Part shown: in pieces, positions 1 to 35,674 of the stretch | Layout of the letters: every line of letters begins with the position of its first letter | Position numbering within the stretch: position 1 is the stretch's first letter | Assembly (NCBI GenBank): GCA_015493635.1 | Contig: WGCU01000076.1 | Location: 1-35,674 of the forward strand | Length of the DNA: 35,674 bases | Direction of reading: 5' to 3' | DNA from: Spirochaetaceae bacterium | Lineage (GTDB): Bacteria > Spirochaetota > Spirochaetia > B11-G9 | Translations under genes and position numbers: made by a program | The notes under the pieces: generated by a model | Databases searched by the model: none | Told to the model about the DNA's origin: nothing | What the model saw: only the letters and a program-made list of their open reading frames with translations

Positions 1-149
1 CAGGAGCCTAAAATCACAAAAAAAGTACTGATTTTACCTTTGAGAAGAGGAAATTCAATAAAATAGAGGTCATCTTGATACAACGGACATTCTATTATAA
101 ATATTGTCATGTATTATTTCGCTAAAATGGGGTACTTCGCAAAAAGCTC
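1..149. repeat. Left copy of a perfect 149-bp terminal inverted repeat; its partner is at 35526-35674. It is non-coding and AT-rich, with an internal 8-bp-stem hairpin (9-36) and sigma70-like hexamers.
   Basis: I compared 1-149 base by base with the reverse complement of 35526-35674 and found 149/149 identity. The match breaks at position 150 (a, versus t in the mirror). Confidence 0.95.
75..103 (+). promoter_or_regulatory. Candidate sigma70-like promoter inside the left repeat copy (TTGATA-N17-TAAATA, or -N15-TATAAA) reading toward the Hpt/kinase operon.
   Basis: The hexamers are visible in the sequence. The background is AT-rich, so this is weakly specific. The same motif is mirrored at 35572-35600 facing the PFOR gene. 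Confidence 0.3.
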
Positions 150-212
150 AGATAGATATTTTATTGATAAATGGAGATTTTTGTGAGAAAGTAAGAGAAA
201 GGAGTTAAAATA

Positions 213-527
213 GTGTATTCATTACAGTCCCTGGCAGACGAGATAGAGTTAAGCGTAGAGGATTTTAAACCGCTTTTACAGGCGTTTATTGAGCAGACCG
301 AGCATGATCTTGGGGAAATTCAGAAAAATACTGCAGATTATGACAGTGCCCGTGTCTCTGAAAGAGTTCACAGTATCAAAGGTGCCTCGTTGAATCTCGG
401 CCTAACCGGAATATCCCGGATTATTGAAGAAATGAGCTCTGCAAACAGAAGCGGTAATACTGCTGTGTTGACGGAACTGCTTAATTCCTGCTCCAAAGAG
501 GTCGATATTCTAAAAAGATTGTTATAA
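213..527 (+). CDS. Stand-alone histidine phosphotransfer (Hpt) domain protein with a GTG start.
   Basis: It has the Hpt signature around the phospho-His: ERVHSIKGASLNLGL. The RBS AAAGGAG lies 8 nt upstream of the GTG. At 104 aa it is a single domain. Confidence 0.8.
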   Translation: MYSLQSLADEIELSVEDFKPLLQAFIEQTEHDLGEIQKNTADYDSARVSERVHSIKGASLNLGLTGISRIIEEMSSANRSGNTAVLTELLNSCSKEVDILKRLL

Positions 528-536
528 GGAAGAAAA

Positions 537-1946
537 GTGAAAAAAATTCTGGTCATTGATAATCATGTTGTAACCCTGAAATATCTCGAAATGCTCCTGG
601 GGAAGGAAGGCTACGATGTCCGTACCGCAAAGGACGGTATTGAGGCTCTTGACATCATCAAAAATTTTAAGCCGGATGTTTTTTTTGTTGATCTCGTTAT
701 GCCGTATATACGGGGAGAGAAACTTATTCCGATTTTAAGAAATATCGATGAGGTGCGTGATTCAAAGATTGTTGTTTTATCCGGAATTGCGGCGGAAATT
801 GAGAGTGATCATCTAAAGTTCGGGGCTGATGCCTGTATAGCAAAAGCTCCCTTTAATAAAATGGGAACGTATATTCTTGATCTTCTTGCGTTATTTAAAA
901 AAGGGGAAACCCATGCTCCCATTCCTGATGTTATCGGTGTTGATGATGTATACAAGCGGGCCGTTACCACAGAGCTTATTGCGGGGCGGAGACATACCGA
1001 TGTTATCCTGAATAATATTTCTGATGGTATTGTTGAATGCAACCGCAGCCACCGTATTGTTTATGCAAATACAGCCGCCATGAAATTTCTTGGCGGAAAC
1101 GCAACGGAAATAATTTTCTCTCCTTTTGAATCTTTCTGGTGCAAGGAAAATGCGGCGGCAATTCAAACGTATCTGGATGAAGTATTAAAACAAGAAGCTG
1201 GAATTCCGGTAACCGTACAGAAAGATGCTTTGTCCTATGAGATCCATGCCCAGTTTCTTAAAACTGAAAATGATGAAACCTTTATTATTATTTTAAAAGA
1301 TATTACGCATTTTAAGCAGAAGCTCAAGGAAAAAGAGACAGTGCTGAAAGAGGTGTATCACAGGGTAAAAAATAATCTGGTTCTCATTTCAAGTATAATC
1401 AATCTTCAGATAGGAGAGTGTAATGACGAAGAGGAACGTGACGTCCTCCATGATTTGAAAAACAGGATAGATTCAATTGCTCTTATACATAGCAAGATAT
1501 TTAAAAGTGAGGATCCTGATCTTCTCCCGCTTAAAGAGTATGTAGAAGAGTTGCTTTCAACACTTATTTACTCAGAAATGGATAGTACTGTATCAGTTGC
1601 GTATACCGTTTCCGTACCGGATGTTCAACTGGATGCGGATTATGCTGTTCCCTTAGGGCTTATAATTACTGAACTAACTTCAAATGCATTACGATATGCT
1701 TTTACCGGTAATGCAGTCGGGAATATATCTGTTACCGGAGTATTATCGGATCCAAATACCCTGTCTATTGTTTTTCAATCTGACGGGATTGCTCCGCCGG
1801 AGTATTTTTCTTTTTTAGAATCCAATCTGTTATGTCTGCGCCTGGTAGAAGCTCTTGTTATGCAGCTTCATAGTTCCATTGCATTTAACGGTGAAAACGG
1901 AGCCGTCTATTCTTTCTCTGTTCCTCTTCGAAAAGCTGCTGAATGA
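537..1946 (+). CDS. Hybrid sensor histidine kinase with an N-terminal receiver (REC) domain, a PAS domain, a HisKA_2-type dimerisation/phosphoacceptor domain and a HATPase_c domain.
   Basis: The REC domain carries the FFVDLVMP acidic pocket. The kinase carries the HRVKNNLVLISSIINLQ motif, which is the HisKA_2/HWE-type H-box, and a C-terminal ATPase region. It sits 9 nt after the Hpt gene. Confidence 0.85.
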   Translation: MKKILVIDNHVVTLKYLEMLLGKEGYDVRTAKDGIEALDIIKNFKPDVFFVDLVMPYIRGEKLIPILRNIDEVRDSKIVVLSGIAAEIESDHLKFGADACIAKAPFNKMGTYILDLLALFKKGETHAPIPDVIGVDDVYKRAVTTELIAGRRHTDVILNNISDGIVECNRSHRIVYANTAAMKFLGGNATEIIFSPFESFWCKENAAAIQTYLDEVLKQEAGIPVTVQKDALSYEIHAQFLKTENDETFIIILKDITHFKQKLKEKETVLKEVYHRVKNNLVLISSIINLQIGECNDEEERDVLHDLKNRIDSIALIHSKIFKSEDPDLLPLKEYVEELLSTLIYSEMDSTVSVAYTVSVPDVQLDADYAVPLGLIITELTSNALRYAFTGNAVGNISVTGVLSDPNTLSIVFQSDGIAPPEYFSFLESNLLCLRLVEALVMQLHSSIAFNGENGAVYSFSVPLRKAAE

Positions 1947-1972
1947 AACCGTAACCATTACGTATATAAAAG

Positions 1973-2005
1973 TAAAAAAGCTCCCGTCCTGCGGGAGCTT
2001 TATAA
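1973..2005. terminator. Bidirectional intrinsic terminator between convergent genes. Stem is agctcccg / cgggagct (1979-1986 and 1992-1999), loop tcctg, flanked by an A-run upstream and tttata downstream.
   Basis: An 8-bp GC-rich stem is visible in the sequence, with A-rich and T-rich flanks. Confidence 0.55.
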
Positions 2006-2023
2006 CACTAAACGAAAAGATTT

Positions 2024-3115
2024 CTACTTATTAATAACAAGCTCTGTTTCACCGTCAAAGAAAACAGCCTTGGAGAAATCAACAGTAAAATTCAGTTTCT
2101 GATCCACAGCTATGTTAATATCAGGTGCTACACGAGCTATAAACTGATGTTTGCCTGTATAAAGATACACGTGAATTTCAGCTCCCAACGGCTCCACAAC
2201 GGTTACATGGGCATTCATGGTCTTGTGCGGAATTGCTTCCGGAACATAGCTGATGTCTTCCGGACGGATACCGAAGATAAGATTTTTACCTACATAACTT
2301 TTTAAATATTCCCCGCCAGGTACTTCCATCTTGAACGTACCCTCATCAATAAACACTTTACCGTTTTCTTCTGTAGCGGTAACCTGCATAAAGTTCATGG
2401 GAGGTGAACCTATAAAACCCGCGACAAACTTGTTTGCCGGTTTATTGTACAGGTCAAGGGGCGATCCTATCTGCTGAATAACACCGTCCTTTAGTACAAC
2501 AATCTTATCTGCCATGGTCATTGCTTCCACCTGATCATGGGTAACATAGATCATTGTTGCCTTGAGTCTGTTATGCAGACTTGAAATTTCCGCTCTCATC
2601 TGCACCCTAAGTTTTGCATCAAGGTTTGAAAGAGGTTCATCAAAAAGGAAAACTTTCGGCTGCCGGACAATAGCACGTCCTACTGCAACCCGCTGTCTCT
2701 GTCCACCGGAAAGCGCTTTTGGTTTCCGGTCAAGGAGTTCTTCTATGTCAAGAATTTTAGCTGCCTCATTAACCCGCTTAACTATTTCTTCTTTGGAGAA
2801 CTTTCTTATTTTTAGACCGAAGGCCATATTGTCGTACACAGTCATATGCGGATACAGCGCGTAATTCTGAAAAACCATCGCAATATCCCTGTCTTTCGGG
2901 GGTACATTATTAACAACCTTACCGTCTATAAGCAGCTCACCTTCCGAGATGTCTTCCAGCCCTGCGATCATTCTCAGTGTCGTGGATTTTCCGCAGCCTG
3001 AGGGTCCAACAAGAACAAGAAACTCTTTGTCCTCTACAACGATATTTGCATTATCAACTGCACGAACATTACCGTCATACACCTTTCCAATGCCTTTCAA
3101 TTCAACTTTAGCCAT
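2024..3115 (-). CDS. ABC transporter ATP-binding protein of the MalK/UgpC/MsiK type, with a C-terminal TOBE regulatory domain.
   Basis: Walker A GPSGCGKST, Q-loop, signature LSGGQRQRVAVGRA, Walker B FLFDEP and H-loop are present. At 363 aa it is typical of carbohydrate-importer ATPases. Confidence 0.92.
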   Translation of the reverse strand: MAKVELKGIGKVYDGNVRAVDNANIVVEDKEFLVLVGPSGCGKSTTLRMIAGLEDISEGELLIDGKVVNNVPPKDRDIAMVFQNYALYPHMTVYDNMAFGLKIRKFSKEEIVKRVNEAAKILDIEELLDRKPKALSGGQRQRVAVGRAIVRQPKVFLFDEPLSNLDAKLRVQMRAEISSLHNRLKATMIYVTHDQVEAMTMADKIVVLKDGVIQQIGSPLDLYNKPANKFVAGFIGSPPMNFMQVTATEENGKVFIDEGTFKMEVPGGEYLKSYVGKNLIFGIRPEDISYVPEAIPHKTMNAHVTVVEPLGAEIHVYLYTGKHQFIARVAPDINIAVDQKLNFTVDFSKAVFFDGETELVINK

Positions 3116-3171
3116 ACTATCCTCCAGAAATTATCTTATAACAAACAGAGTAATATGGATTTATCCTCTTG

Positions 3172-4425
3172 TCAATCTAATAGTGATTTTTGGGATGGAT
3201 TTTGTTTTTCCCACTTTATCATGGTATCTTTCAATGTGTCTGGTGGAGGATTATCTGTGTTGGCTTGCTGGAAAAGCCATGGTTTTATAATGTGTTCTTT
3301 AATAGTTATCCAGTTTTCCGGTACTGCCGGAGGAAACAGCAGAGCTGTTTCAGGCGGGATATGCCCCATTAATGCGGGATGCAATTTGGGAAGTTCGTTG
3401 TTGTTTATTTCACGAAGAGAAGAAAGTCCCTGGCCGATGCCGAAAATTCTTATGCGTTTATGAATAGTGGCTTCCAGAAATTTCTTTTGAGTTTCTCTCT
3501 TGAAAAACCATGAAAGAAAAATTTCAGCATCTCTTTTGTTGCCGGCACCCTTGGGAATCCCTGTATAGAGAATATTTTGGAGGGCATGGACATGATTGTT
3601 GTGAGAGAGCCATCTGAAATCAAGGTCTTTTCTCTTTTCAGGCGGAAGCGCGAAAAAGGAAGTAAGATTAGCGTATGCAAATGAGATTCTCCCCTCTTCA
3701 ATTAGATTTGGTTTCGGGTCATAAAGATATTTTTCACTGAATTCACGCTCCTGTATCAGCCCTCCATTAACCGAAAGAATCCAGTTTTGAATAAACTGTA
3801 TCGATTTTTCAAGATTTTCATTATTCCATGTGATAAATGAATGGGTTTGTTTGAAATCAGTGTTGTACAGTTTTGTTATCTGAAACAGCATTTCTGTGTT
3901 CCATAAGGGAGAAAAGCCTTCAACAGCATGTGTTCTTTTACTTTTTTTGTTTGCTGCCTGTGAGGCTTCTTTCAGTGTATCCAGATTCATAAAGAAGGGA
4001 ACGATAAAGGGTGAGGCAGAATTCTTTTTAAAGAAAATCAGGGGCAGATTAAATGAAACAGGAAGCAGTATCTGATGTCCGTCCATGCTGCCCTCTTTTA
4101 GCAGATTGACGTAAAATAATGTTTTATCAATTTTTTCTTTTTTAAAAAGAGAATCCAGCTGGATAAAGAGCGGAAAGGTCTCTGCAGCGTTTAAATACTC
4201 GTCAAATACGAGATCGGGGGGAGTGGTGGCTGTTCCAAGTGCATCTCCCGGATTTTTCTTGTACTCAATTTCGACTTTTGTCTTGCTGTGAATAGCGTTG
4301 AATTCTTCAACATACGCGGCAATCTCCGGTCTGTTAGTCCACAGAACAACGGTATGTCTTTCGTACTGACTGCAGGAAACGCCAAGAAGCAGTATGCCTG
4401 TGATTAAAAAAATGTATTTCTTCAT
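3172..4425 (-). CDS. Putative ABC-transporter solute-binding lipoprotein (family-1 extracellular solute-binding protein).
   Basis: It has a lipoprotein signal peptide with a Cys (LLLGVSCSQ). At 417 aa, its mature N-terminus begins VVLWTN, as sugar-binding proteins do. It lies immediately upstream of the MsiK-like ATPase. No permease genes are adjacent. Confidence 0.55.
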   Translation of the reverse strand: MKKYIFLITGILLLGVSCSQYERHTVVLWTNRPEIAAYVEEFNAIHSKTKVEIEYKKNPGDALGTATTPPDLVFDEYLNAAETFPLFIQLDSLFKKEKIDKTLFYVNLLKEGSMDGHQILLPVSFNLPLIFFKKNSASPFIVPFFMNLDTLKEASQAANKKSKRTHAVEGFSPLWNTEMLFQITKLYNTDFKQTHSFITWNNENLEKSIQFIQNWILSVNGGLIQEREFSEKYLYDPKPNLIEEGRISFAYANLTSFFALPPEKRKDLDFRWLSHNNHVHALQNILYTGIPKGAGNKRDAEIFLSWFFKRETQKKFLEATIHKRIRIFGIGQGLSSLREINNNELPKLHPALMGHIPPETALLFPPAVPENWITIKEHIIKPWLFQQANTDNPPPDTLKDTMIKWEKQNPSQKSLLD

Positions 4426-4475
4426 GTTCCGTTACTCTAAGATGGAGAAAGTGTATTGTCAATCCCGGGCGCGGT

Positions 4476-5456
4476 ATGAATAATAAAGAAATGTTTTTCT
4501 CTTACAGCACGTATCTAAAAAACAAATATGGTAAACCGGCATTCAGGGTCTCTGTCGACGGCGGATTTTCATGTCCAAACCGGAATAATGATGGAAGCGG
4601 GGGATGTACGTACTGTGATGAACTTGGGTCTCTTGCTGTATACCATCGGGGACAGGAGGCTTCCATTGCTCATTCACTGCCTGAAAATCTCTATCATCCT
4701 TCTCCTTTCTCCGGAAGAGGATTTTCCATGGCAGCCCGGAAGGAGAGGATTGCAAGGCAGATTGATGAAGGAATGGAATTCTTAAAACGCCGGTACGGAG
4801 CAGTTTATTTTCTGCTCTATTTTCAGGCGTTCACGGGGACTTTTGCTCCGGTAAAACAGCTGCGGGAACTGTATGATTTTGCCCTGTCCAGGGCTTCTTT
4901 TAAGGAACTGATCGTTTCAACAAGACCCGACTGTGTCAGTCCGGCTGTTGCGGATCTGCTTTTATCATACAGAAAGCCGGATTTGGATGTATGGGTTGAA
5001 CTTGGTCTACAGAGTTCTCATAACAGCACTCTGTCTCGGATTAACAGAGGACACAGCAAAGAGGATTTTGAAAAAGCTTTTATGCTGCTGAGGGACCGGG
5101 GTTTAAAGATAACGGTTCATCTTATATTCGGGCTGCCGGGGGAAGGCAGGAAAGAGATAATGGAAACAGTGCGGTATATCGCATTGCTGAAACCTGAAGG
5201 TGTAAAAATCCATAATCTTCATATACCAGTGGGGACAGCCCTCTTTACAGAGTACTCCATGGGAGAACTGACCGTACCGTCCGGATACCGGCATCTTTCC
5301 TATGTCTGTGAAGCATTAAAGATGCTGCCGCCGGAGGTTATTATCCACAGGCTGACCTGTGACACTCCCCCCCACCGGCTTGGAGCTCCGAGGACCTTTT
5401 TCAAGAAAGGGACGTTCCTTGCTCTTGTAAAAGACCGGATGCATTATTCTCATTGA
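4476..5456 (+). CDS. Radical SAM protein of the TIGR01212 family (YhcC-like).
   Basis: The N-terminal motif FRVSVDGGFSCPNRNNDGSGGCTYCDE (a Cx(n)CxxC cluster preceded by a conserved block) is characteristic of TIGR01212. The true start may be the downstream Met at about 4491. Confidence 0.8.
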   Translation: MNNKEMFFSYSTYLKNKYGKPAFRVSVDGGFSCPNRNNDGSGGCTYCDELGSLAVYHRGQEASIAHSLPENLYHPSPFSGRGFSMAARKERIARQIDEGMEFLKRRYGAVYFLLYFQAFTGTFAPVKQLRELYDFALSRASFKELIVSTRPDCVSPAVADLLLSYRKPDLDVWVELGLQSSHNSTLSRINRGHSKEDFEKAFMLLRDRGLKITVHLIFGLPGEGRKEIMETVRYIALLKPEGVKIHNLHIPVGTALFTEYSMGELTVPSGYRHLSYVCEALKMLPPEVIIHRLTCDTPPHRLGAPRTFFKKGTFLALVKDRMHYSH

Positions 5457-5457
5457 C

Positions 5458-7020
5458 ATGAGTCTTTTTTTGCCATACATTTGCATTATGGAAGAAAAAA
5501 AGTCTGGCGGTTTTCTGCAGAAGCTCCTCAGCCTGTTCGGTGGTAACGACCCCGCTCTGGAAAAAAAGCGGCAGTTAAAAGAGATTGCCAAAGCTTTAAA
5601 GAAGCAGAGATTCAAGTTTTACCGTGTTAAAAATGAACAGGTTCTTCCGCTCTTTGCCAAATTCTTTTATGATATTTACAAAAATATTACTCCTTCTCAG
5701 GTCTTTCTTGAAAATGCCCAGAACTCATCAGCGTTAAAGATGATAGTTATTGACTCCTTTCTTTCTGATGAACAGTTGAACCGCCGTGAGAAGCTTGATG
5801 AAGAGTATATCAGGAAGCGTTCTGATGAGCTTGATCCCAAGAGTCTTTCGACAGAACTGAAAGATACCCTCGTTTCATATTATGCCGCATTCTCAAGTGA
5901 TGTGGTATCATCTATAGATAGAATGTACAATCTTCTTCTTTCTTTTACTGATTTTACCGGGTTTGATTACTACTTTCTCCTGAAGAAGTTTGATTCCGGA
6001 TTTCCCGAGCGCGATTTTGTTTACAATCCCCGGTTTGAATCCATAAACGGAGAGTATATTGTTGACGATCTGAAAGATTTCCTTGATATTGTTCCTCCCA
6101 TTGTGGAAGATTCTCCCTGGGATAAATTGTTTGATATCCTCAGAAGTTATAAAAATACGGAAATAATAGACAGAGGCGCATGGAAAAAGATTCAGAAAAA
6201 TATTGCAGCGGTTGTAAAAGCTCAAACACTTCTCCTTATGGTCCGCCATATTGACAAGGATCCGAAATATCTTCCGAAACGGTACATGCCATCGGAAAGA
6301 ATTGTTGAGGATCATTTAAACAAGATGAAATCTCAGGCCGAATTAACACTGCAGAAGATAATGAAAGGAAAAAGGGCAAAAAAAATAGATGCTCTATTAA
6401 TGAAAACCTTCGGTACGACTGCAATATCCCGTATGAAAAATTACACAGGGAGAGCAAATATAGCTTTTTCAAAAAAAATGCTTGGCGGGTTTATCTACGT
6501 TGATCCGGCAAATTATCTTAAAGCGTTCCTTCTTGATTACTTTAAACGGGATATAAAAAACCTAGTGGATATTCTCCTTATCCGGGGGAAATGGGCAACC
6601 CAGGTTGCAAGCCAGCAGCTGTCCGAGTCTTTTCATGCTATTATGGATGTAGCTTCCAACCTTGTAACGTTTGATGATCAGCTGTCTGAAGATGGGGAAA
6701 TGGGGTTGAAATTCAAAAATCTGCTCTCCCGTCCGGACAAGGACAAAAACAGTGTTACCATATTAAGGCGTCTTCTCGGAGAGGTGAATGATTCGATGTT
6801 GCACATGCTTACGGAAACGGCTCAGAATTTTGTTATCATGGGCCGCAGTTTAAAAAATATTCTGGAAGATTATGGTAAAAAAGATGCTGAAATGATTATT
6901 AACTGGAAAGAGCTCCAGTCCTCTACTGATGTTGATCTTAAAACTGAAATCTCAAGTATCTATAAAAAAATCTACTATTTTGTCCAGCTTATGCAGTTTT
7001 TTATCAAAAAGAAAAAATGA
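5458..7020 (+). CDS. Conserved-looking hypothetical protein (520 aa, Lys-rich C-terminus). It starts 1 nt after the radical-SAM stop. I could not find a recognisable catalytic motif.
   Basis: It is a long uninterrupted ORF in an otherwise dense coding context. A more likely start is MEEKK at 5488. Confidence 0.6.
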   Translation: MSLFLPYICIMEEKKSGGFLQKLLSLFGGNDPALEKKRQLKEIAKALKKQRFKFYRVKNEQVLPLFAKFFYDIYKNITPSQVFLENAQNSSALKMIVIDSFLSDEQLNRREKLDEEYIRKRSDELDPKSLSTELKDTLVSYYAAFSSDVVSSIDRMYNLLLSFTDFTGFDYYFLLKKFDSGFPERDFVYNPRFESINGEYIVDDLKDFLDIVPPIVEDSPWDKLFDILRSYKNTEIIDRGAWKKIQKNIAAVVKAQTLLLMVRHIDKDPKYLPKRYMPSERIVEDHLNKMKSQAELTLQKIMKGKRAKKIDALLMKTFGTTAISRMKNYTGRANIAFSKKMLGGFIYVDPANYLKAFLLDYFKRDIKNLVDILLIRGKWATQVASQQLSESFHAIMDVASNLVTFDDQLSEDGEMGLKFKNLLSRPDKDKNSVTILRRLLGEVNDSMLHMLTETAQNFVIMGRSLKNILEDYGKKDAEMIINWKELQSSTDVDLKTEISSIYKKIYYFVQLMQFFIKKKK

Positions 7021-7066
7021 AAGGTATCAATACCCCGCCGCGGGGTATTGATACCTTTCGTTCTCT
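7014..7066. terminator. Strong bidirectional intrinsic terminator with a perfect 18-bp stem (7020-7037 and 7041-7058) and loop ccg. It has an A-rich 5' flank, which is T-rich for the minus strand, and tttcgtt on the 3' side.
   Basis: I confirmed that aaaggtatcaataccccg pairs with cggggtattgataccttt. It lies between the convergent genes at 5458-7020 (+) and 7136-8224 (-). Confidence 0.7.
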
Positions 7067-7135
7067 GCACTCGCTTAGGGCAGGGGCTAACAAGTTGTCC
7101 CGCTCCACTCACTCATTTGAGAATAAACTGTCTGC

Positions 7136-23835: not shown

Positions 23836-23864
23836 TAGTGATGAAACTCCGGGATTCCCGGGAA

Positions 23865-23910: not shown

Positions 23911-23912
23911 GA

Positions 23913-25424: not shown

Positions 25425-25433
25425 AGTAACTCC

Positions 25434-26000
25434 TTAACCGAAAATCAAGGTTATCAGTTTCCCTGTTGGTAGAGGGACATACAACAGTTTATAAAATGCA
25501 AAGTAAGAGAAGAGCAGCCATCCGGCAGTAAGATAAATTATAACCTTCCATTTCCTGTATGCAAGGTAGTACATTCCCCCCACAAGAAAGAGAATGGTGG
25601 AAATGAAATATCCGATGTACTGCATGAGAATAAGGTACAGTATGGTAAATCCCAGATAGACGAAAACAACGCCGATATGTCCCCACTTGGGATCTTTTTC
25701 TTCAAATCGAAGAAGAGCCTTGATAAGGAGAAGGATGCTGAAACTGAAAATTCCGATTATCCATAGAAGCGGAACAACACCGGGGCCTACACCCGCCTCT
25801 TTTTTTGCAGGGAAACCCAGCAGAATTACAAGAAATACAAAAGCAAGTTCAATAAAAAAAAGAGGGAACAAAATCCGCCCGGCATATTCTTTTTTTGAAG
25901 ATCGAATAACGGCATATGCAGCTATCCCGAAAATAATAATCATGGCACTTAACAAGAGAGTGAATCCGGTGCCCTTTCCTAGATATCTAATTAATTCCAT
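25434..26000 (-). CDS. tctB: Tripartite tricarboxylate transporter small permease TctB (4-TM).
   Basis: It is a 188-aa hydrophobic protein encoded between tctC and tctA. The call rests mainly on that position. Confidence 0.55.
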   Translation of the reverse strand: MELIRYLGKGTGFTLLLSAMIIIFGIAAYAVIRSSKKEYAGRILFPLFFIELAFVFLVILLGFPAKKEAGVGPGVVPLLWIIGIFSFSILLLIKALLRFEEKDPKWGHIGVVFVYLGFTILYLILMQYIGYFISTILFLVGGMYYLAYRKWKVIIYLTAGWLLFSYFAFYKLLYVPLPTGKLITLIFG

Positions 26001-26094
26001 ATTTTTGTCTCTATATTAATTAAGTTAAAAGAAAGGAGTAATCTGCCATAATACCGCACATTACTCCTTAAAAGATAAAGCAGTCCGCAGGGAA

Positions 26095-27051
26095 TTATTT
26101 GCCGAGGGTCATTTTATAACCGGCGTAATCATCTGCTACCATCTTGTTAAACTTGTCTTTAGTATAGTGTACAAGCTGATTTCCTTTCGGAGCGTATGCC
26201 TTTATCCAGTCGGGATCCTTTGAAATCTTTTCAAAAAGGTCATTGTACCATGCTATAACAGAATCAGGGGTTCCTTTCTTAACTGCAAAACCTCTCCAGA
26301 TTATCTCTCCGGAAACACCTTTTACTCCAAGTTCCTTGAATGTCGGAACATCGGGAAACTGAGGGAGACGTTTATCGAGACAGACTGCGGCAATGCTGAA
26401 ATCGGGTTTACCAATTATTTCTCCCGGATTACCTGTGTACGTAGCACCCTGTTTTCCAAGAAGAGCAGCCTTAGCTTTTCCTCCGCTGGCAAAGGGAACC
26501 CAGGTAGCCTTTATTCCCGCTGCTTTCCATATCCTCATGGCGGTAACATTGTCCAGTCCTCCTGCTGCCGGTCCGAGCCAGAGCTGTTTGCCGTTTTTTG
26601 CTTTCGCGTCCGCAACAACCTGTGCCCATGTTACAACATTGGTTTTATTGTTCGTAATAACACACTCCGGATCGATCTGCATCATGGAAATCCAGTCAAA
26701 CTCTTTTGTAGGGTTGATAGCGGAACTTGTGGAAACAAGCTTGGAGATGTTCGATTTTGTAACGTACATAAGAGTATAACCGTCTGCAGGTACACTCTTA
26801 ACGTATTCCATGGTTACAATACCACCCGCACCGGGTTTATTTTCTACAACGAAGGTAGCCTTCGTGTACTTTGCAGCAATATCCATTGCTTTCCGTGTTA
26901 AAATATCACCAGCACCTCCCGGTCCGGTATACACAATGACATGAATCGGTTTTGTAGGGAAGTTGGCAGCCTGGCTTTCTCCTTTCCCGTTTGCAAAAAG
27001 AGAAACAGAGAGTGCTGCAACCAGCAATACAAATAGTAATGTTTTCTTCAT
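26095..27051 (-). CDS. tctC: Tripartite tricarboxylate transporter substrate-binding protein TctC.
   Basis: It has a signal peptide and is 318 aa, the size of the TctC/Bug family. It is the first gene of a C-B-A order operon. Confidence 0.7.
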   Translation of the reverse strand: MKKTLLFVLLVAALSVSLFANGKGESQAANFPTKPIHVIVYTGPGGAGDILTRKAMDIAAKYTKATFVVENKPGAGGIVTMEYVKSVPADGYTLMYVTKSNISKLVSTSSAINPTKEFDWISMMQIDPECVITNNKTNVVTWAQVVADAKAKNGKQLWLGPAAGGLDNVTAMRIWKAAGIKATWVPFASGGKAKAALLGKQGATYTGNPGEIIGKPDFSIAAVCLDKRLPQFPDVPTFKELGVKGVSGEIIWRGFAVKKGTPDSVIAWYNDLFEKISKDPDWIKAYAPKGNQLVHYTKDKFNKMVADDYAGYKMTLGK

Positions 27052-27289
27052 AATAAACTCCTTGAAAATGTAGAATTTTACGGCTTGTACTCTTAAAGTA
27101 TACTGCCGTGTGTTAAAAGATCAATATTCCAACGATATATTGACTTAAATTTCCTGCAAAGTAAAATTAAAAATTGTTATAGTCCCTATTAAAAACTTTG
27201 ATAAATTGGAGATACTGCTTTTCTTGACAGGAAGAACATAATGAGAGAGGATCTGTGTGAGATTTTGATTTTTTAAAGGAGAGAAGATA

Positions 27290-28378
27290 ATGAGTAACGT
27301 ACTGAACGATTTCCTGAAATCCGCAAAAGCAGGTTTTACTTCTGATGAAGAAACAACAGTTGTCATTGGAAATGAAGCAGCTGACCTTGACTCCATGGCT
27401 TCTGCTGTTACATATGCGTACTTTCTGAAAAATACGGGTAATGCAAAGAATGTTGTTCCGTTGATAAACATACCGCTTGCTGATTTCAAGCTGAGAACTG
27501 AAGCGGTTTTTCTGTTTAAAGAAGCGGGGGTGGATGCTGGAAACCTGATATCGGTAACTGATATTGATCTTGATTCCCTTTATTCAAAAGGAAACATGCG
27601 GTTAGTACTGACTGATCACAATAAAATCGGTGCTCATCAGGAAACATTCAAAGATGCTGTGGTAGCTATTCTTGACCACCACGCGGATGATGGAGAGTAT
27701 CCCCGGAATGCTGAAACGGATATCCGCCCGGTAGGTTCCGCATGTACCCTTGTTGCTGAAAAATATCTTTCAGAAGCTCCCGGAAGTATAGACACTTCCA
27801 TTGGTACGCTGCTTTTGGGGACTATTCTGCTTGATACGGTGAATCTGGACCCTGATGCTGGACGGGTAAAGGATGAGGATAAGAAAGTTGCTGCTGCACT
27901 TATTGAAAAAACCGGACTTGACGGAAAGAAACTTTTTGATACCCTGCAGTTTGAGAAATTCAACGTATCCTCTCTCGGCAGTTATGACCTCCTGCGGAAA
28001 GATTACAAGGAATGGGATCTTAACGGTACGATGTGCGGTATAGGTTCTGTCCTGATGTCTGCTACCGATTGGCTGAAAAAAGACAGGGACGTCATTGATT
28101 CTTTTGAAAAATTCCTGAAAGAGCGCAAGCTTGATGTTCTTCTGGCGATGAATGCTTTTACACAACCGGAATTTACCCGGAATCTCGTTGTGTATGTTCC
28201 GGACCAGGCGTTGCGGAGCCGGTTAATAGAATTTCTGGAAGGAGCCGGTCTTGAACTTGAAAAGATTGACGGAGGAGATATCAGCAAGAAAGAGGCGCTT
28301 GATATCTATAATCAGAAGAATCTTGGTATATCCAGAAAGAAGCTTCAGCCCCTTTTGAAAGAATTCTTTTCTAAATAA
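27290..28378 (+). CDS. DHH/DHHA2-family phosphoesterase, resembling a PPX1/prune-like exopolyphosphatase or a family-II inorganic pyrophosphatase homologue.
   Basis: It carries the motifs GNEAADLDSMAS, LTDHN, ILDHHADDG and GSACT in the family order, followed by a DHHA2-like C-terminal half. Confidence 0.75.
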   Translation: MSNVLNDFLKSAKAGFTSDEETTVVIGNEAADLDSMASAVTYAYFLKNTGNAKNVVPLINIPLADFKLRTEAVFLFKEAGVDAGNLISVTDIDLDSLYSKGNMRLVLTDHNKIGAHQETFKDAVVAILDHHADDGEYPRNAETDIRPVGSACTLVAEKYLSEAPGSIDTSIGTLLLGTILLDTVNLDPDAGRVKDEDKKVAAALIEKTGLDGKKLFDTLQFEKFNVSSLGSYDLLRKDYKEWDLNGTMCGIGSVLMSATDWLKKDRDVIDSFEKFLKERKLDVLLAMNAFTQPEFTRNLVVYVPDQALRSRLIEFLEGAGLELEKIDGGDISKKEALDIYNQKNLGISRKKLQPLLKEFFSK

Positions 28379-28387
28379 TTCCTGATA

Positions 28388-28428
28388 AAACCCGGAACCG
28401 TTTGCGTTTGTAAGGCGGTTTCGGGTTT
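28388..28428. terminator. Stem-loop between the convergent DHH and LysR genes. It is a 13-bp stem with one mismatch. A T-run follows on the minus strand only.
   Basis: aaacccggaaccg (28388-28400) pairs with cggtttcgggttt (28416-28428). Confidence 0.4.
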
Positions 28429-29338
28429 AAAGCGGGTGACTCATTGCATCCCTGTTTTCTACAAGATAATCGTAGAACCTTTTTTGGGAAGGTGACAGTT
28501 CCTTATTTTTGTGGTAGACCATCTGGATATAACGGTAAAAAGGGTAATCTGAAATGGGAAGTGTTTTAATCCAACCGGATTCCGCTTCTTTTTTAATTTC
28601 TAGATAACTGAAAAAAGCAATCCCCATATTTTTTTCCACCATGGTTTTTATCATTGCCTTGTTTCCCAGTTCGTAAGCAATAGTGTACGGTATACCGGAA
28701 CGCTTAAATAATTTGTCTATCGCCTGGCGTGAAACCGTGTTGCGGAGAGAGACAATAATAGGCTGATTCGCAAGGTCTGCTAAGGTGATCGATTCCATTG
28801 CTGCAAAGGGATGATCCATACTCATGGCGGCTACAATTTTATCCCGGTAGATAACCGTCCCGGTAATTTCATGATGGAGTATTTCCGGGGTACTGCTTCC
28901 GATAATTCCTATATCAAGTTTGTTCGTTTTTATCAGTTTTACTATCATGGAAGATTTTCTTGTTGTAATGGCAAAGTGGACATTGGGATATTCATCGAGA
29001 AAGGATGAAAGGCATGATGGAATAAGCCGGGCACCCGGGAGTTCGCTTACGCCAAGTTTAATAGAGCCTTCTCCCGGTTCTTTAAGCATGTTCACCGCCA
29101 GAAGGGAATCGTCAAAAAGATCAAGCATTTTACCGACAAAAGGGATGAGTATTTTTCCTGCTTCAGTTAGCTCTATTGACCGTCCGATGCGGTCAAAAAG
29201 TTTAGCAGCATATTCGGTTTCAAGATCTTTTATCTGTGTGCTTACCGCAGGTTGTGTCAGGTAGAGTACTTCAGCCGCTTTACTGAAGCTCTTTAAGCGG
29301 GCAACAGTGTAGAATGACTTTAACTTGTATAGATCCAT
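28427..29338 (-). CDS. LysR-family transcriptional regulator.
   Basis: It has the N-terminal HTH LKSFYTVARLKSFSKAAEVLYLTQPAVSTQIKDLE and a substrate-binding domain of about 200 aa. Confidence 0.9.
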   Translation of the reverse strand: MDLYKLKSFYTVARLKSFSKAAEVLYLTQPAVSTQIKDLETEYAAKLFDRIGRSIELTEAGKILIPFVGKMLDLFDDSLLAVNMLKEPGEGSIKLGVSELPGARLIPSCLSSFLDEYPNVHFAITTRKSSMIVKLIKTNKLDIGIIGSSTPEILHHEITGTVIYRDKIVAAMSMDHPFAAMESITLADLANQPIIVSLRNTVSRQAIDKLFKRSGIPYTIAYELGNKAMIKTMVEKNMGIAFFSYLEIKKEAESGWIKTLPISDYPFYRYIQMVYHKNKELSPSQKRFYDYLVENRDAMSHPL

Positions 29339-29471
29339 TATCAGCTCCTTGCTAAATAGTATACTGGCATAATGATTATTTATGGAAGCAATAATTTTAT
29401 TTAATTAGACTAAAAGAATAAATAAAACTATGATATAATCCTCTTTAATACTATATAACAGGGAGTTGACC

Positions 29472-30122
29472 ATGAATCTTTTTTTTCAGCGTGCCCGTAA
29501 AATTGAGGGCAATATTGACAAGTATCTTGATAATATTACAAAAGCTATTCTTACTTTTGATCAGGGTATTAAAGAATTCTTTAACGGTAATATAGATCTT
29601 TTTGAAGAGAAGTATAAAGAAGCGAGTAAACTTGAAAGTGACAGCGATGAACTAAGACGGGATATTAAATATACCCTCTACCGTGATCTCCTTATACCTG
29701 ACGCCCGGGGAGACGTTCTCGGCCTGCTGGAAACACTGGATGATGTTATTGATATAATAGAAGAGGTTTTGAGAGAGTTTTCAATTGAGAAGCCGGCTAC
29801 TCTTGGAGATTATAAGGAAGATTTCCTTTCGCTTTCAGAGAAGTCTGTTAAAAGCGCTCAGGAACTGGTCTCCGCTTCGAGGGCATTTTTTAGAGATATT
29901 ACGAACGTACATGATTTCATTACCCAGGTACACTACTGGGAACATGAAGCAGACAAGGTAGAAGAAAGAATTAAAAGAAATGCTTTCGGTCCTGATGGAA
30001 GGGAAAAACTGAGCGAGAAAGTCCAGGTGCGGTACTTTGCCGAAAGAATTTCACTGTTGGCTGATACGGCGGAAGATGTTGCTGAAAGACTTGATGTTTA
30101 TACCATCAAACGAAGTATTTAG
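29472..30122 (+). CDS. DUF47/PhoU-like protein (the TIGR00153 'phosphate transport regulator-related' family), encoded immediately upstream of PiT.
   Basis: It has the family's helical repeat pattern and the conserved 10-nt linkage to the PiT gene. The start is at ATG 29472, which has a GGGAG RBS. The ORF track began at an upstream TTG. Confidence 0.75.
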   Translation: MNLFFQRARKIEGNIDKYLDNITKAILTFDQGIKEFFNGNIDLFEEKYKEASKLESDSDELRRDIKYTLYRDLLIPDARGDVLGLLETLDDVIDIIEEVLREFSIEKPATLGDYKEDFLSLSEKSVKSAQELVSASRAFFRDITNVHDFITQVHYWEHEADKVEERIKRNAFGPDGREKLSEKVQVRYFAERISLLADTAEDVAERLDVYTIKRSI

Positions 30123-30132
30123 GAGTCGCTGA

Positions 30133-31185
30133 ATGGGAGTAACATTATTATTTTTAACAAGCGGCCTTTTTCTCGGCTGGTCTCTCGGTTCGAATGATGC
30201 GGCGAATGTATGGGGTACCGCTGTCGGAACACGGATGGTCAAGTTTAAACAAGCCGCCCTTATCTGCAGTATTTTTATTATTCTCGGAGCTGTTGTCAGC
30301 GGAGCGGGAGCTTCCCATACTCTGGGGAAACTGGGAGCTATCGGTGCTCTTGCAGGCGCCTTTACGGTAGCCTTTTCCGCTGCTCTTTCTGTCTATTTAA
30401 TGACACGTCTTGCTCTGCCTGTATCCACAACCCAGGCAATAGTCGGCGCGATAGTAGGCTGGAATCTGTTTTCGGGAACTGGAATAAACGGGGCAGCACT
30501 TGCAAAGGTTATGGGTACCTGGGTTTTTTCTCCGGTTCTTACAGCGTTTTTTGCATTTGTTCTCTACTTCCTCGTTGTTTTTATACTGAAGCATGTGAAA
30601 GTCCATCTTATCAGACTGGATGGATATACAAGGCTGCTGCTTCTTCTCGCGGGAGCTTTCGGATCTTACAGTCTTGGTGCTAACAATATTGGAAATGTTA
30701 TGGGTGTTTTTATAAAGAGTGCCGCTTCCGCTTTTCCGACCTTTAATTTAGGATCTTTTTTTACCTTTGGCGGTGTGCAGCAGCTGTTTCTTCTGGGCGG
30801 GCTTGCCATTGCAGTAGGTGTGTATACCTATTCCAAACGGGTAATGATGACCGTGGGAGCAGATATTTTTAAACTTTCTCCGGTAACTGCATTTATAGTA
30901 GTTCTTTCCAGTTCCATCGTACTGTTTCTTTTTGCTTCACAGGGGCTTAAAAACTTTCTGGTGGGGCATAATCTTCCTTCGTTTCCTCTGGTTCCCGTTT
31001 CTAGTTCCCAGTCAATAGTCGGGGGTGTTATTGGTATCGGTCTTGCAAAGGGAGGCCACAATCTTAATCTCAGGATTCTTGGAAAAATAAGCCTTGGGTG
31101 GATAGCAACACCTCTTATCGGTGCAGTTGTAGCATTTGTCTCATTGTTTATCGTACAGAATGTTTTTGGACAGGTAGTCTATTAA
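30133..31185 (+). CDS. pit: Inorganic phosphate transporter of the PiT/PHO4 family.
   Basis: It has the N-terminal GSNDAANVWGTAVGT motif (the GANDVANA signature) and its repeat GANNIGNVMG in the second half. Confidence 0.9.
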   Translation: MGVTLLFLTSGLFLGWSLGSNDAANVWGTAVGTRMVKFKQAALICSIFIILGAVVSGAGASHTLGKLGAIGALAGAFTVAFSAALSVYLMTRLALPVSTTQAIVGAIVGWNLFSGTGINGAALAKVMGTWVFSPVLTAFFAFVLYFLVVFILKHVKVHLIRLDGYTRLLLLLAGAFGSYSLGANNIGNVMGVFIKSAASAFPTFNLGSFFTFGGVQQLFLLGGLAIAVGVYTYSKRVMMTVGADIFKLSPVTAFIVVLSSSIVLFLFASQGLKNFLVGHNLPSFPLVPVSSSQSIVGGVIGIGLAKGGHNLNLRILGKISLGWIATPLIGAVVAFVSLFIVQNVFGQVVY

Positions 31186-31218
31186 ATAGAATATATTTTT
31201 AAAGATGAGGAGAAAAAA

Positions 31219-31860
31219 ATGGGAAAACCAAATTTAGAGATCGGTGTTCAATCTGATCCGCGCTTTGAATTCAGAACATTCGGAAGAGACTTCAGCGAAG
31301 CAGCATTCAGAATGGCACGTCTTTCGGTTCCTGTTCCTGAAAAGGTATGGGAGAGGCACTCAAAGGAAACATACATTGTTTCTGCAACAAACGATAAAAA
31401 CAATACCAAGATCCGGGATGGAAAAATGGACATTAAAACCTTCGTTCAGGAAAAAGAGGGCCTTGAGCAGTGGAATCCCCTGATGAAAGGCGAATTCCCC
31501 ATTTCCAAAAAGGTTCTTGAGAAAGAAGTGTTTCCTGCTTTTATGGTGGATATGCCTTCTCTGGATAAAGACAGCTATACTCTCGAAGAGTTCATAGCCA
31601 TGGTCAAGGCTAACAAGGATCTGCAGGCGGTCAGTGTAGAAAAACAGCGCTATGGTTACTCTGTCAACGGAACCATCTGTGAAGTTGCCAATGTATGGAT
31701 CAATGGAGCAAAGGTTGTTACCATAAACTCTGAATCTACTGTTATTGCGGATATCCTGAAAACACTGAAGGATGTCGGACTTGAGGGCATTGAGAATATC
31801 AATTATCTACAGGCTGTAAAACGTATTATCGGAATGATTGATAAGCCTCTCAGTAATTAG
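31219..31860 (+). CDS. Hypothetical protein (213 aa). I recognised no domain. It follows PiT by 33 nt.
   Basis: It is a clean ORF with a GAGGAG RBS and sits in operon position. Confidence 0.55.
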   Translation: MGKPNLEIGVQSDPRFEFRTFGRDFSEAAFRMARLSVPVPEKVWERHSKETYIVSATNDKNNTKIRDGKMDIKTFVQEKEGLEQWNPLMKGEFPISKKVLEKEVFPAFMVDMPSLDKDSYTLEEFIAMVKANKDLQAVSVEKQRYGYSVNGTICEVANVWINGAKVVTINSESTVIADILKTLKDVGLEGIENINYLQAVKRIIGMIDKPLSN

Positions 31861-31883
31861 TATTTCCGTTCATAAACGTTCAG

Positions 31884-31921
31884 AAAAAAAGGCCGCCTTT
31901 TAACAAGGCGGCTCTTTTTAT
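31884..31921. terminator. Bidirectional intrinsic terminator. The stem is gccgcctt / aaggcggc (31892-31899 and 31905-31912), the loop is ttaac, an A7 run lies upstream and tcttttta downstream.
   Basis: I read this from the sequence. It lies between the convergent PiT-operon and PFOR genes. Confidence 0.7.
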
Positions 31922-31936
31922 GCGGTGAGAGCTTTG

Positions 31937-34900
31937 CTAAAGCATTTCACCAAACTTTTTCATAAAATCCATTCTTCGTTTTGCATCTTCAGCAGCTTCA
32001 TCATAGAGGGATTCAGCTTCAGCAGGTGCTGTTTTCTGCAGTGCTGTATACCGCCGTTCTCCCTTGATATATTCCTTGTAGTCCAGCTTAGGCTCTCTCG
32101 ATTCCCAGGTAAACTTCTTCCCTTCTTCTGCAAGGGGATTGTACCGGTACAGAGGCCAGTAACCTGCTTCAACAGCACGTTTTTCTTCGGACTGAGACTG
32201 ACTCATGTCAAATCCATGAGCGATACAAGGGGAGTAAGCGATAACGATGGATGGGCCAGGATAACTTTCCGCTTCCATGAGAGCTTTCTGTGTCTGTGCC
32301 CTGTTTGCACCCATTGCAATGGAAGCAACATAAACATATCCGTAACTCATACACATGAGTCCAAGGTTTTTCTTTGGAAGCCGCATCCCGGCATTGGCAA
32401 ACTTTGCAACAGCTGAAATAGGTGTTGACTTGGATGCCTGACCGCCGGTATTTGAGTATACTTCGGTATCAAGAACAAGGATGTTAACGTTCTTTCCTGA
32501 GGCAACAACGTGATCAAGACCTCCATAGCCGATATCATAGGCCCATCCGTCACCGCCGATAATCCAGACACTCTTGTCAACAAAGTAGTCTTTAAGTTCC
32601 ACAAGTTTTGCGAGTACTTCTTTCTTTTCCCCAGAAGCGGATTTCAGTTCCTTTTCAAGGAGTGTCCCGCTGGCAGTCTGGGCGCTAATGGCCTCTTTAT
32701 CTTTGCTGTCCCACAGCTCTATGCTCTTTTTAAGTGCGCTTTCGAGCTCCGGTGAGACTCCCATGGATAACAGTTTGTCCAATGATATCTTAAGCTGCTC
32801 CCTGTTGCTGTCAACTGCAAGCCGCATTCCCATTCCGTATTCCGCGTTATCTTCGAAAAGGGAATTCCCCCATGCGGGTCCGCGTCCTTCTTTCGTTTTA
32901 CAGTACGGAATGGTAGGAAAAGTACCTCCATAGATGGAAGAACATCCTGTAGCGTTTGCAGCAATCATGTTATCTCCGTACAGCTGGGAAACAAGCTTAA
33001 CGTACGGTGTTTCCCCGCAGCCTGCACAGGCGCCGGAGAATTCAAAGAGCGGTTTTTTAAACTGGGCTCCTTTGTACGTTGACTCCTTGATACCGTCAAG
33101 AACATTATCCGGAAGGGCTTCGAAAAACTCAGCATTTTCAATTTCACCTTTGTCCCTCTCCGTCTGAATGGGACTCATAACGAGCGCTTTCTCTTTGGCG
33201 GGACAGACATCCACACAAACACCGCATGCCTGACAGTCTTCGGTGTATACCTGAATCTTGAATGTAAGATTACGGTCATTCTTGGTATTTGATTTTAGGG
33301 TATGAAAGGTGGAAGGTGCATCTTTCAGATCTTCCGGAGCTATCTGTTTTGCACGTATTGCCGCGTGGGGACACGCCATGGAACACTGGTTGCACTGTAT
33401 ACAATTTTCTGCTATCCAGTTCGGTACGTACGCTGCAACACCGCGTTTTTCAAGTGCCGCAGTTCCAAGCGGCAGGGTTCCGTCGAAGGACATCTTTGAA
33501 ACCGGAATGTCATCACCCTTCATATGCATAATCGGTAAGACAACATCTTTTGCAAAATCTGAAGCATCATCGGCAATAAGCTGAGGAGGTTCATAAGAAT
33601 CGGTGCCTGCAGGCGGAATGGTAACTTCTTCAAGAGCAGCTGATGCTCCGTCCACTGCGGCCCAGTTCATATTGACAATATCTTCACCCTTTTTAATAAA
33701 GGATTTGTGTATGTAGTCTTTTATGAGTTTTATGGCCTCATCCTCGGGGATAATACCGGAAATCTTGAAAAATGCTGCCTGCATGACAGTATTAATCTTC
33801 ATTCCAAGACCAGCTTTTTCTGCTATCTTGAGGGCATTGATATTATAGAATTTAATTTTTTTTGTTCTGATGGTATCCTGCATCTCTTTCGTCAGATGGT
33901 TAAAAACCTCAGAAGTGGGTATAATCGAGTTGAGCAGGAATGTGCCCCCTTCTTTTAAGGGACCGAGCATGTCAAAGCGTCCGATATACGCCTGATTATG
34001 GCAGGCAACAAAATCTGCGGCATCGATAAGCCACGGCATGTTTACTGAACTATCACCGAACCGCAGGTGGGAAATGGTTATTCCTCCGGATTTTTTTGAA
34101 TCGTACACAAAGTATGCCTGAGCATTCTTTTCTGTGCTGCTTCCAATAATTTTTATCGAGTTCTTGGCTGCCCCAACGGTACCGTCGGCACCAAGCCCCC
34201 AGAACATGCAGCTGACAACATCATCCGGAGTAACATCAATACGTTCCTTGATTTTAAGTGACCTGTTTGTTACATCGTCATTTATACCAACGGTAAAGTT
34301 ATGGAAACATGCTCCGTCAAGATGATCAAAAACAGCTTTTACCTGACTTGGAGTAAACTCTTTACTGGAAAGACCGTAGCGTCCGCCGATTACCTTGATA
34401 TCTTTATCCGCGAGAGCAGCTGCAACATCAAGAAAGAGCGGTTCACCGATGGATCCCGGTTCTTTTGTCCGGTCAAGAACAGCAATTTTTTTACAGGTTT
34501 CAGGGATTGCTCCGATAAATGCTTCTACAGAGAAGGGACGGTACAGGCGGACCTTGATAGCTCCAACCTTTTCTCCCTGTTTATTGAGATAATCGACCGT
34601 CTGTTCAATAGTATCACAGGCGCTTCCCATGGCAATAATAACCTTCTCCGCGTCAGGAGCCCCGACGTAATCGAAAAGGTGGTACTGTCGTCCAATAACA
34701 GCAGCTACTTTATCCATGTACTCCTGAACTATTGCAGGGGTAGCATCATAGTATTTGTTTACCGTTTCTCTGCCCTGAAAATAAACATCCGGATTCTGGG
34801 CTGCTACCTTAATAATGGGATCTTCCGGCCGCATGGCCCGTTTCCTGAACTGTTCAACATATTCAGGCTCAAGAAGTTTTTTCATATCGGAAAAGGGGAT

Positions 34901-35458
34901 TTCTTCGACTTTCTGGATTTCATGGGATGTTCTGAATCCATCAAAGAAACTTAAAAAAGGTACCTGTGCTTTTAGAGTCGCCAAGTGGGCAACCAATGCC
35001 ATATCCATCGTCTCCTGTATGGAGGATGCAACAGTCATGGCAAATCCGGTATTCCGGGTTGACATAACATCGGAGTGATCTCCGAAAATTGAAAGTGACT
35101 GGGCCGCGAGAGAACGGGCTGAAACATGAAAGACCGTGGGAAGCATTTCCCCCGCTATCTTGTGCATGTTCGGAATCATGAGGAGAAGCCCCTGTGAAGC
35201 GGTGAACGTAGTAGTAAGAGCTCCTCCGCTTAGCGAACCATGTACTGCTCCTGACGCTCCTGCTTCTGACTGCATCTCAACAACATCAACCTTTTTCCCG
35301 AAAAGGTTTTTTAATCCTGTACTTGCCCAGGAATCAGCATACTCCCCCATTGGAGATGAAGGTGTAATAGGGAAAATGGCCGCAACTTCACTGAATGCAT
35401 ACGCAACATGAGCCGCGGCCGTGTTACCGTCAATCGTAACCATCTTTTTTTTAGACAT
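31937..35458 (-). CDS. nifJ: Pyruvate:ferredoxin (flavodoxin) oxidoreductase, the single-chain homodimeric PFOR.
   Basis: At 1173 aa it has two ferredoxin CxxCxxCxxxCP clusters (CIQCNQCSMACP and CQACGVCVDVCP) and the TPP-binding GDGW motif in the C-terminal domain. Confidence 0.95.
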   Translation of the reverse strand: MSKKKMVTIDGNTAAAHVAYAFSEVAAIFPITPSSPMGEYADSWASTGLKNLFGKKVDVVEMQSEAGASGAVHGSLSGGALTTTFTASQGLLLMIPNMHKIAGEMLPTVFHVSARSLAAQSLSIFGDHSDVMSTRNTGFAMTVASSIQETMDMALVAHLATLKAQVPFLSFFDGFRTSHEIQKVEEIPFSDMKKLLEPEYVEQFRKRAMRPEDPIIKVAAQNPDVYFQGRETVNKYYDATPAIVQEYMDKVAAVIGRQYHLFDYVGAPDAEKVIIAMGSACDTIEQTVDYLNKQGEKVGAIKVRLYRPFSVEAFIGAIPETCKKIAVLDRTKEPGSIGEPLFLDVAAALADKDIKVIGGRYGLSSKEFTPSQVKAVFDHLDGACFHNFTVGINDDVTNRSLKIKERIDVTPDDVVSCMFWGLGADGTVGAAKNSIKIIGSSTEKNAQAYFVYDSKKSGGITISHLRFGDSSVNMPWLIDAADFVACHNQAYIGRFDMLGPLKEGGTFLLNSIIPTSEVFNHLTKEMQDTIRTKKIKFYNINALKIAEKAGLGMKINTVMQAAFFKISGIIPEDEAIKLIKDYIHKSFIKKGEDIVNMNWAAVDGASAALEEVTIPPAGTDSYEPPQLIADDASDFAKDVVLPIMHMKGDDIPVSKMSFDGTLPLGTAALEKRGVAAYVPNWIAENCIQCNQCSMACPHAAIRAKQIAPEDLKDAPSTFHTLKSNTKNDRNLTFKIQVYTEDCQACGVCVDVCPAKEKALVMSPIQTERDKGEIENAEFFEALPDNVLDGIKESTYKGAQFKKPLFEFSGACAGCGETPYVKLVSQLYGDNMIAANATGCSSIYGGTFPTIPYCKTKEGRGPAWGNSLFEDNAEYGMGMRLAVDSNREQLKISLDKLLSMGVSPELESALKKSIELWDSKDKEAISAQTASGTLLEKELKSASGEKKEVLAKLVELKDYFVDKSVWIIGGDGWAYDIGYGGLDHVVASGKNVNILVLDTEVYSNTGGQASKSTPISAVAKFANAGMRLPKKNLGLMCMSYGYVYVASIAMGANRAQTQKALMEAESYPGPSIVIAYSPCIAHGFDMSQSQSEEKRAVEAGYWPLYRYNPLAEEGKKFTWESREPKLDYKEYIKGERRYTALQKTAPAEAESLYDEAAEDAKRRMDFMKKFGEML

Positions 35459-35525
35459 AATAATCCCTCGATTATAATTAGATTTTATATGCTTTTAGTA
35501 TAAATCTTTATAAAACATCATACAA

Positions 35526-35674
35526 GAGCTTTTTGCGAAGTACCCCATTTTAGCGAAATAATACATGACAATATTTATAATAGAATGTCCGTTGTATCAA
35601 GATGACCTCTATTTTATTGAATTTCCTCTTCTCAAAGGTAAAATCAGTACTTTTTTTGTGATTTTAGGCTCCTG
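35526..35674. repeat. Right copy of the perfect 149-bp terminal inverted repeat, in inverted orientation relative to 1-149.
   Basis: This is the exact reverse complement of 1-149. It begins 67 bp upstream of the PFOR start codon. Confidence 0.95.

Follow-up and report, generated by a model that had tools for sequence, protein, structure and literature searches.

The perfect terminal inverted repeat of a Spirochaetaceae metagenomic contig very probably stems from two inverted insertion sequence copies at its ends

Contig WGCU01000076.1 (NCBI GenBank assembly GCA_015493635.1, Spirochaetaceae bacterium) comes from a Spirochaetota metagenome-assembled genome (MAG) in the Brothers volcano vent deposit data, with homologue names likewise pointing to Spirochaetota, and it was analysed over its whole length of 35,674 bp (hereafter, the window). 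Its two ends form a perfect inverted repeat: reverse-complementing positions 35526-35674 gives positions 1-149 exactly, with 149 matches out of 149, and the bases just inside the repeat differ at once at position 150 (A vs T). Recomputation in this way reproduced what an earlier reading of the letters alone (the sequence-only reading) had described, namely a perfect 149-bp terminal inverted repeat with a sharp break at position 150. The repeat has a G+C content of 32% and no further copies in the window; a perfect match of 149 nt cannot arise by chance. As detailed below, the 149-mer is the end of an insertion sequence (IS), and the contig is very probably bounded by the ends of two inverted copies of this IS, each of ~1.72 kb, that broke the metagenome assembly. 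The features of the locus are as follows:

1-149, plus strand: right end of IS copy A (last 149 nt, non-coding by homology), alignable with the corresponding ends of the related IS copies on contigs L011, L012 and L010; truncated by the contig end.
128-149, minus strand: 22-nt terminal inverted repeat of copy A (GAGCTTTTTGCGAAGTACCCCA); the IS terminus is at 149/150, and the same 22 nt are found at the IS ends of L011, L007 and L010.
150-212, plus strand: native intergenic DNA, 63 nt, from the IS terminus to the Hpt start codon; identical in the empty-site relatives L002-L005.
150-35525, no strand assigned: ordinary chromosomal segment of 35,376 bp, with Pfam matches; collinear with relatives at both ends.
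35459-35525, minus strand: native intergenic DNA, 67 nt, from the IS terminus to the PFOR start codon; kept in the relative L006 up to the breakpoint.
35526-35547, plus strand: terminal inverted repeat (22 nt) of copy B, with the IS terminus at 35525/35526.
35526-35674, minus strand: right end of IS copy B (last 149 nt), in the opposite orientation to copy A; reverse complement of 1-149; truncated by the contig end.

Both repeats lie upstream of inward-reading genes: the Hpt gene starts at 213, and PFOR (1,173 aa, minus strand) starts at 35458. The segment between them encodes an Hpt/response-regulator kinase, ABC transporters, LolA-like, MacB-like and SPFH proteins, GntR, an amino-acid permease, choline kinase, a short-chain dehydrogenase, a NYN-domain protein, RlmL, TctABC, DHH, LysR and PhoU/PHO4 proteins, a three-subunit 2-oxoacid:ferredoxin oxidoreductase and the single-chain PFOR, with a few open reading frames (ORFs) lacking a family. 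Among the larger interior ORFs, Pfam identified no transposase, recombinase, integrase or replication gene, in agreement with the sequence-only reading; the window contains no tRNA gene and no Rfam family either.

Regarding the identity of the repeat, its inner end was informative. The 24-mer AATGGGGTACTTCGCAAAAAGCTC taken from there had no exact match in the genome and metagenome contig collections. L007, the contig carrying the radical SAM orthologue in the same sample, ends in GAGCTTTTTGCGAAGTACCCC, followed by different sequence; this end is the other arm of the terminal inverted repeat. A 21-mer scan led to L010, a JGI contig of 1,761 bp that has the motif on its left and contains a 436-aa ORF; the right end of L010 aligns with window 1-149, although the contig breaks off before the last 14 nt of the IS; the 21-mer matches in two Candidate Phyla Radiation bacteria (L008 and L009) were rejected as chance, lying inside apparent coding sequence conserved between both. 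A search with the L010 transposase then returned L011 (Logan, SRR10312500) and L012 (ENA, SAMN12239312), both from the same project as the window. In L011 the IS is complete, measuring 1,724 bp and bearing a perfect 22-bp inverted repeat at each end (47-68 and 1749-1770), and the same 22 nt form the inner end of both window repeats; L012 terminates exactly at ...AAAAAGCTC. Over their whole length, window positions 1-149 are 83-92% identical to the last ~150 nt of the L010-L012 copies, and the final 22 nt are identical between the window repeat, L011 and L012. In the window, the 22-nt motif is confined to the inner ends of the two repeats, even with up to 3 mismatches allowed, while shuffled sequences are expected to give 0 occurrences. 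The 149-mer had no match among plasmids, and the 22-mer had none among viral contigs.

In the full IS copies, the stretch aligned with the window begins ~58 nt past the transposase stop codon; this homology places the stop ~58 nt before window base 1, so that the 149-mer is non-coding. For the same reason, an ORF whose 3' end would span positions 1-66 (QEPKITKKVLILPLRRGNSIK*) was rejected. The body of copy A and its transposase gene would sit to the left of the contig, with the transposase reading rightwards, and the right, transposase-distal end of the IS faces a gene in both copies. The sequence-only reading had concluded that the window was not a classical IS or transposon by gene content; this does not hold, given that each repeat is the right end of an IS copy, pointing inwards, with the body of that copy outside the contig. 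An IS200/IS605-type element, with a TnpB guide RNA at the right end, was also considered and dropped in view of the terminal inverted repeats and of the DDE transposase, and L013 (protein P0258) was rejected as the window's own IS variant.

As for the flanks of the complete copy, L011 reads ...GAGAAAC-IS-AACATT..., in which AAC may be a 3-bp target-site duplication, an uncertain assignment from one complete copy. The left IS flanks of L010 (1-50) and L011 (1-46) are homologous, both ending in ...TTAGGGCTTGCTGA.AAAC at the IS boundary; this suggests either that related genomes of different datasets share one insertion site or that the IS has a preferred target.

The second line of evidence is the occurrence of empty sites in relatives. 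At the left end, the contigs compared were those carrying the same Hpt protein: L002 (GCA_015486855.1), L003 (an ENA assembly), L004 (Logan) and L005 (GCA_027007725.1). All four are 97.4-99.8% identical to the window, and the alignment of each begins exactly at base 150; left of it, they hold different intergenic DNA, reading ...GTTTGAAAATAAAAAAAA up to the junction and AGATAGAT... from it. Further leftwards, L002 and L003 carry ordinary genes (radical SAM/B12, amino-acid kinase, phosphoribosyl pyrophosphate synthase and a lyase), L005 has a partial gene only, and L004 terminates within the intergenic DNA. At the right end, L006 (GCA_054030575.1) has 90.7% identity and stays collinear with window positions 23364-35526; its breakpoint (35525/35526) is ambiguous by 1 nt, and beyond it L006 continues with a 511-aa gene, a glycosyltransferase and a guanylate cyclase. 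An NCBI contig of 109,225 bp also seems to hold a PFOR (P0003, 94%) together with a radical SAM homologue (P0123). The sites are therefore occupied in the window and empty in relatives at both ends, with the breakpoint at the IS terminus in the four relatives on the left and in L006 on the right. The inner edges of the repeat, 149/150 and 35525/35526, are true IS termini and biological, and its outer edges and, probably, the figure of 149 are technical. Judged from these contigs, the IS is active, in the sense that it is polymorphic among relatives 97.4-99.8% identical to the window, within uncultured Spirochaetota of the Brothers volcano vent deposits.

L007 was considered as the far side of the left IS copy and rejected: it is uniformly ~94.5% identical to L003, while the window is 99.4% identical to it. 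In positions 1-241 of L007, a ~94.5%-identical lineage from the same sample carries a member of the same IS family, ending in the same 22 nt, in the equivalent intergenic region between the radical SAM and Hpt genes; there, the IS adjoins an extra 55-aa ORF with faint similarity to ParD/DUF6290 (antitoxin-like), which L002 and L003 lack.

The technical side of the repeat follows from the extent of the contig. The window is the complete 35,674-bp contig, the same length being on record for the longest contig of the 100%-identical PFOR cluster; the repeat therefore ends outwards where the contig ends, and 149 nt is a lower bound for the repeated unit. The coincidence of the repeat with the contig termini agrees with a contig-boundary artefact, which the sequence-only reading had listed among its alternatives. 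That reading had also held that a repeat placed at contig termini, or one belonging to a generic dispersed family, would speak against a special element, and both turned out to be the case, the 149-mer being part of a dispersed IS family; for its other proposals, an unusual large element or a duplicated regulatory cassette, no evidence was found.

The length of the repeat may itself be explained by the assembler. In MEGAHIT, a k-max of 151 is lowered to the largest odd value that the read size permits (149 for 150-nt reads), and adjacent contigs have one k-mer in common, thus overlapping by k. MEGAHIT contigs named k149_, for which the final k is 149, occur in other studies. The sample SAMN12239313, corresponding to SRR10312499 (sample S145, Brothers volcano), is listed in Zhou et al. 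2022 (PMC9793634), and the assembly of Reysenbach et al. 2020 (PMC7768687) used MEGAHIT on HiSeq 3000 reads with k-min 31, k-max 151 and k-step 20, and a minimum contig size of 2,000 bp. It is more likely than not that 149 is the final k of the MEGAHIT run behind the window, a value deduced from these settings and not read from the assembly log or the contig name. With the same settings, a unitig made of the 1,724-bp IS would fall below the 2,000-bp filter, which would account for the absence of the IS body from the MAG.

An independent assembly also bears on the left junction. The Logan contig L001 (SRR10312499) matches window 122-7081 at 100% identity, its first base lying 28 nt inside the IS end; a second assembler therefore also branched at the left IS boundary. 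Assembled at k=31, L001 begins at window position 122 and not at 120, a detail with which a third IS copy in that sample, its flank likewise starting with AG, would fit, although weakly.

Taken together, these data lead to the following scenario. A 35.4-kb chromosomal segment would lie between two inverted copies of an IS of ~1.72 kb, with 22-bp terminal repeats and a 436-aa DDE transposase; both insertions would be intergenic, copy A being 63 nt upstream of Hpt and copy B 67 nt upstream of PFOR. A short-read assembler would be unable to cross a 1.7-kb repeat, and it would output the unique segment with a 149-nt IS stub at each end; with the copies in opposite orientations, these stubs amount to a terminal inverted repeat. 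That both IS copies are full-size and reside in the same genome is what we infer. Several points weigh against this scenario: L007, which belongs to another assembly of the same sample, ends only 53 nt into the IS end; the independent assembly backs the left junction only, not the right one; the far flanks of the window copies are absent from the contig, and with them any target-site duplication; the exact IS variant of the window was not recovered, its 149 nt being only 83-92% identical to L010-L012; and, with the IS bodies outside the window, a full-size copy is not distinguished from a shorter derivative.

The last two points leave some room for copies that are short non-autonomous derivatives (similar to miniature inverted-repeat transposable elements), consisting of IS ends only, at which the assembly would break likewise: only 149 nt of each copy are visible, and the body, in the exact variant of the window, was not recovered. 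Such derivatives are unlikely, because the homology to full-size copies spans all 149 nt, far past the 22-bp terminal repeat, and full-size copies with intact transposases are present in the same project.

Less probable still is an assembly in which junctions from different strains were joined via a shared 35-kb segment, or in which one end is chimeric. It is true that the sample harbours several related lineages as well as several IS variants, and that sister samples contain alleles with an empty site; yet an abundant empty allele in the sample should have stopped the unitig at base 150, both breakpoints fall exactly on an independently defined IS terminus, and the left junction was reproduced by Logan.

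The sequence-only reading had regarded the geometry as a substrate for inversion of the whole segment, and this stands in the formal sense that two identical inverted copies permit homologous inversion; short reads, moreover, do not tell which way round the segment lies with respect to the far flanks. The further step, a special invertible element in which the 35 kb flips through RecA or a site-specific recombinase as a regulated switch, found no support and is highly improbable: the segment encodes neither an invertase nor a recombinase, the repeats are nothing more than ordinary IS ends, the flanks next to the genes are native on both sides and keep their synteny with relatives, and no data show two orientations. 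Switches of the Hin/Gin or tyrosine-recombinase type have a recombinase gene within or beside the segment and short specific inverted sites; here, the ORFs of the segment gave no recombinase domain, and the repeats are IS ends.

Finally, a composite transposon (Tn10/Tn5-like) moving the 35 kb, or a linear replicon or a phage that ends in inverted repeats, can be dismissed almost entirely, since the formal architecture of inverted IS copies around a segment, and the superficial likeness of a 35.7-kb molecule with ~150-bp terminal repeats to a protein-primed linear genome, are outweighed by the IS-free relatives, in which Hpt adjoins the radical SAM gene and PFOR adjoins its own upstream genes, so that the inner flanks are native neighbours and the segment is in its native chromosomal place rather than an IS-bounded unit at a foreign location, and, for a replicon or phage, by a housekeeping content devoid of replication, terminal-protein or structural genes and by ends that are contig ends inside an IS and not molecule ends.

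Both the Hpt operon and PFOR begin ~65 nt from the IS right end, and a promoter scan of the IS end found no outward-facing sigma-70-like site. It is improbable, about as much as the joining of different strains, that either a real inversion polymorphism of the 35-kb segment occurs in the vent spirochaete population, or transcription proceeds outwards from the IS right end into the Hpt operon and PFOR; if either were true, the insertions would be regulatory and not neutral.

As for the family of the IS, the 436-aa transposase of the related copies (L010 and L011) matches the Pfam domains DDE_Tnp_1 (PF01609, 56 bits, cut-off 23) and, at its N-terminus, DUF772 (PF05598, 37-38 bits, cut-off 23). 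The best NCBIfam family is IS1182 (NF033551), with 97.2 and 91.4 bits against a cut-off of 270, and this match spans the C-terminal half of the transposase only; the IS5 models (NF033581 and related) reach at most 53-54 bits against cut-offs of 110-275, IS5_4 in particular giving ~53 bits against 140. Scores so far below the NCBIfam equivalog cut-offs indicate an unnamed lineage, and the IS is, as far as these profiles can tell, an unnamed member of a known superfamily, IS5/IS1182-like. Homologues of the transposase are abundant, exceeding 3,300 at E<=1e-20, and are labelled by NCBI plainly as 'transposase'; among plasmids, there was one partial match only.

Within the 90% cluster, the transposase variants P0136, P0255, P0256, P0259 and P0260 look mosaic, with different blocks of shared substitutions, which suggests several co-existing IS variants or chimeric assemblies of them. 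The C-terminus of P0259 (ENA), a protein outside the window, reads CLLYTSPSPRD, which we take to be the translated Nextera adapter CTGTCTCTTATACACATCT; this would mean adapter read-through in a public contig.

Two other traits of the interior segment were observed. It holds two pyruvate/2-oxoacid:ferredoxin oxidoreductase systems, one of three subunits (POR_N/PFOR_II, TPP_enzyme_C and POR) at 21478-23835, and the single-chain 1,173-aa PFOR at 31937-35458. In addition, a dispersed intergenic repeat of ~110-170 nt, with no Rfam match, is found at window 7016-7128, L002 6750-6920, L003 7015-7185 and L007 258-420; it starts with the palindrome GAAAGGTATCAATACCCCGC/GCGGGGTATTGATACCTTTC, followed by GTTCTCTGCACTCGCTTAGGGCAG...CCGCTCCACTCACTC.TTTGAGAATAA. 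L001 terminates inside this repeat, and in the relatives a second copy, which contains an additional GC-rich nested palindrome, sits upstream of Hpt, immediately to the left of the point at which the IS inserted.

In conclusion, an apparently unnamed IS5/IS1182-like IS has landed just upstream of two genes, and the locus carries a caution of wider use: when a metagenomic contig carries a perfect terminal inverted repeat, the repeat can be made of the assembler stubs of flanking inverted IS copies, and such a contig-end repeat should not be taken for a large mobile or invertible element.

Compared with known systems, the locus resembles de Bruijn graph contigs with repeat stubs of k-mer size: the repeat coincides with both contig termini, the independent k=31 assembly breaks at the same IS boundary, and the published MEGAHIT settings permit a final k near 149; it differs in that the equivalence of 149 and the final k is here only deduced. 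It shares with Tn10 and Tn5 the bracketing of a DNA segment by two inverted copies of one IS, and it departs from them in its cargo, 35 kb of native, syntenic chromosome with no sign of moving as a unit. The IS itself is like IS1182/IS5-type elements in having a single DDE transposase of ~436 aa, a length of ~1.7 kb and short perfect terminal inverted repeats, and in being multi-copy with insertion polymorphism between close relatives, whereas its transposase scores far under the IS1182 and IS5_4 equivalog cut-offs.

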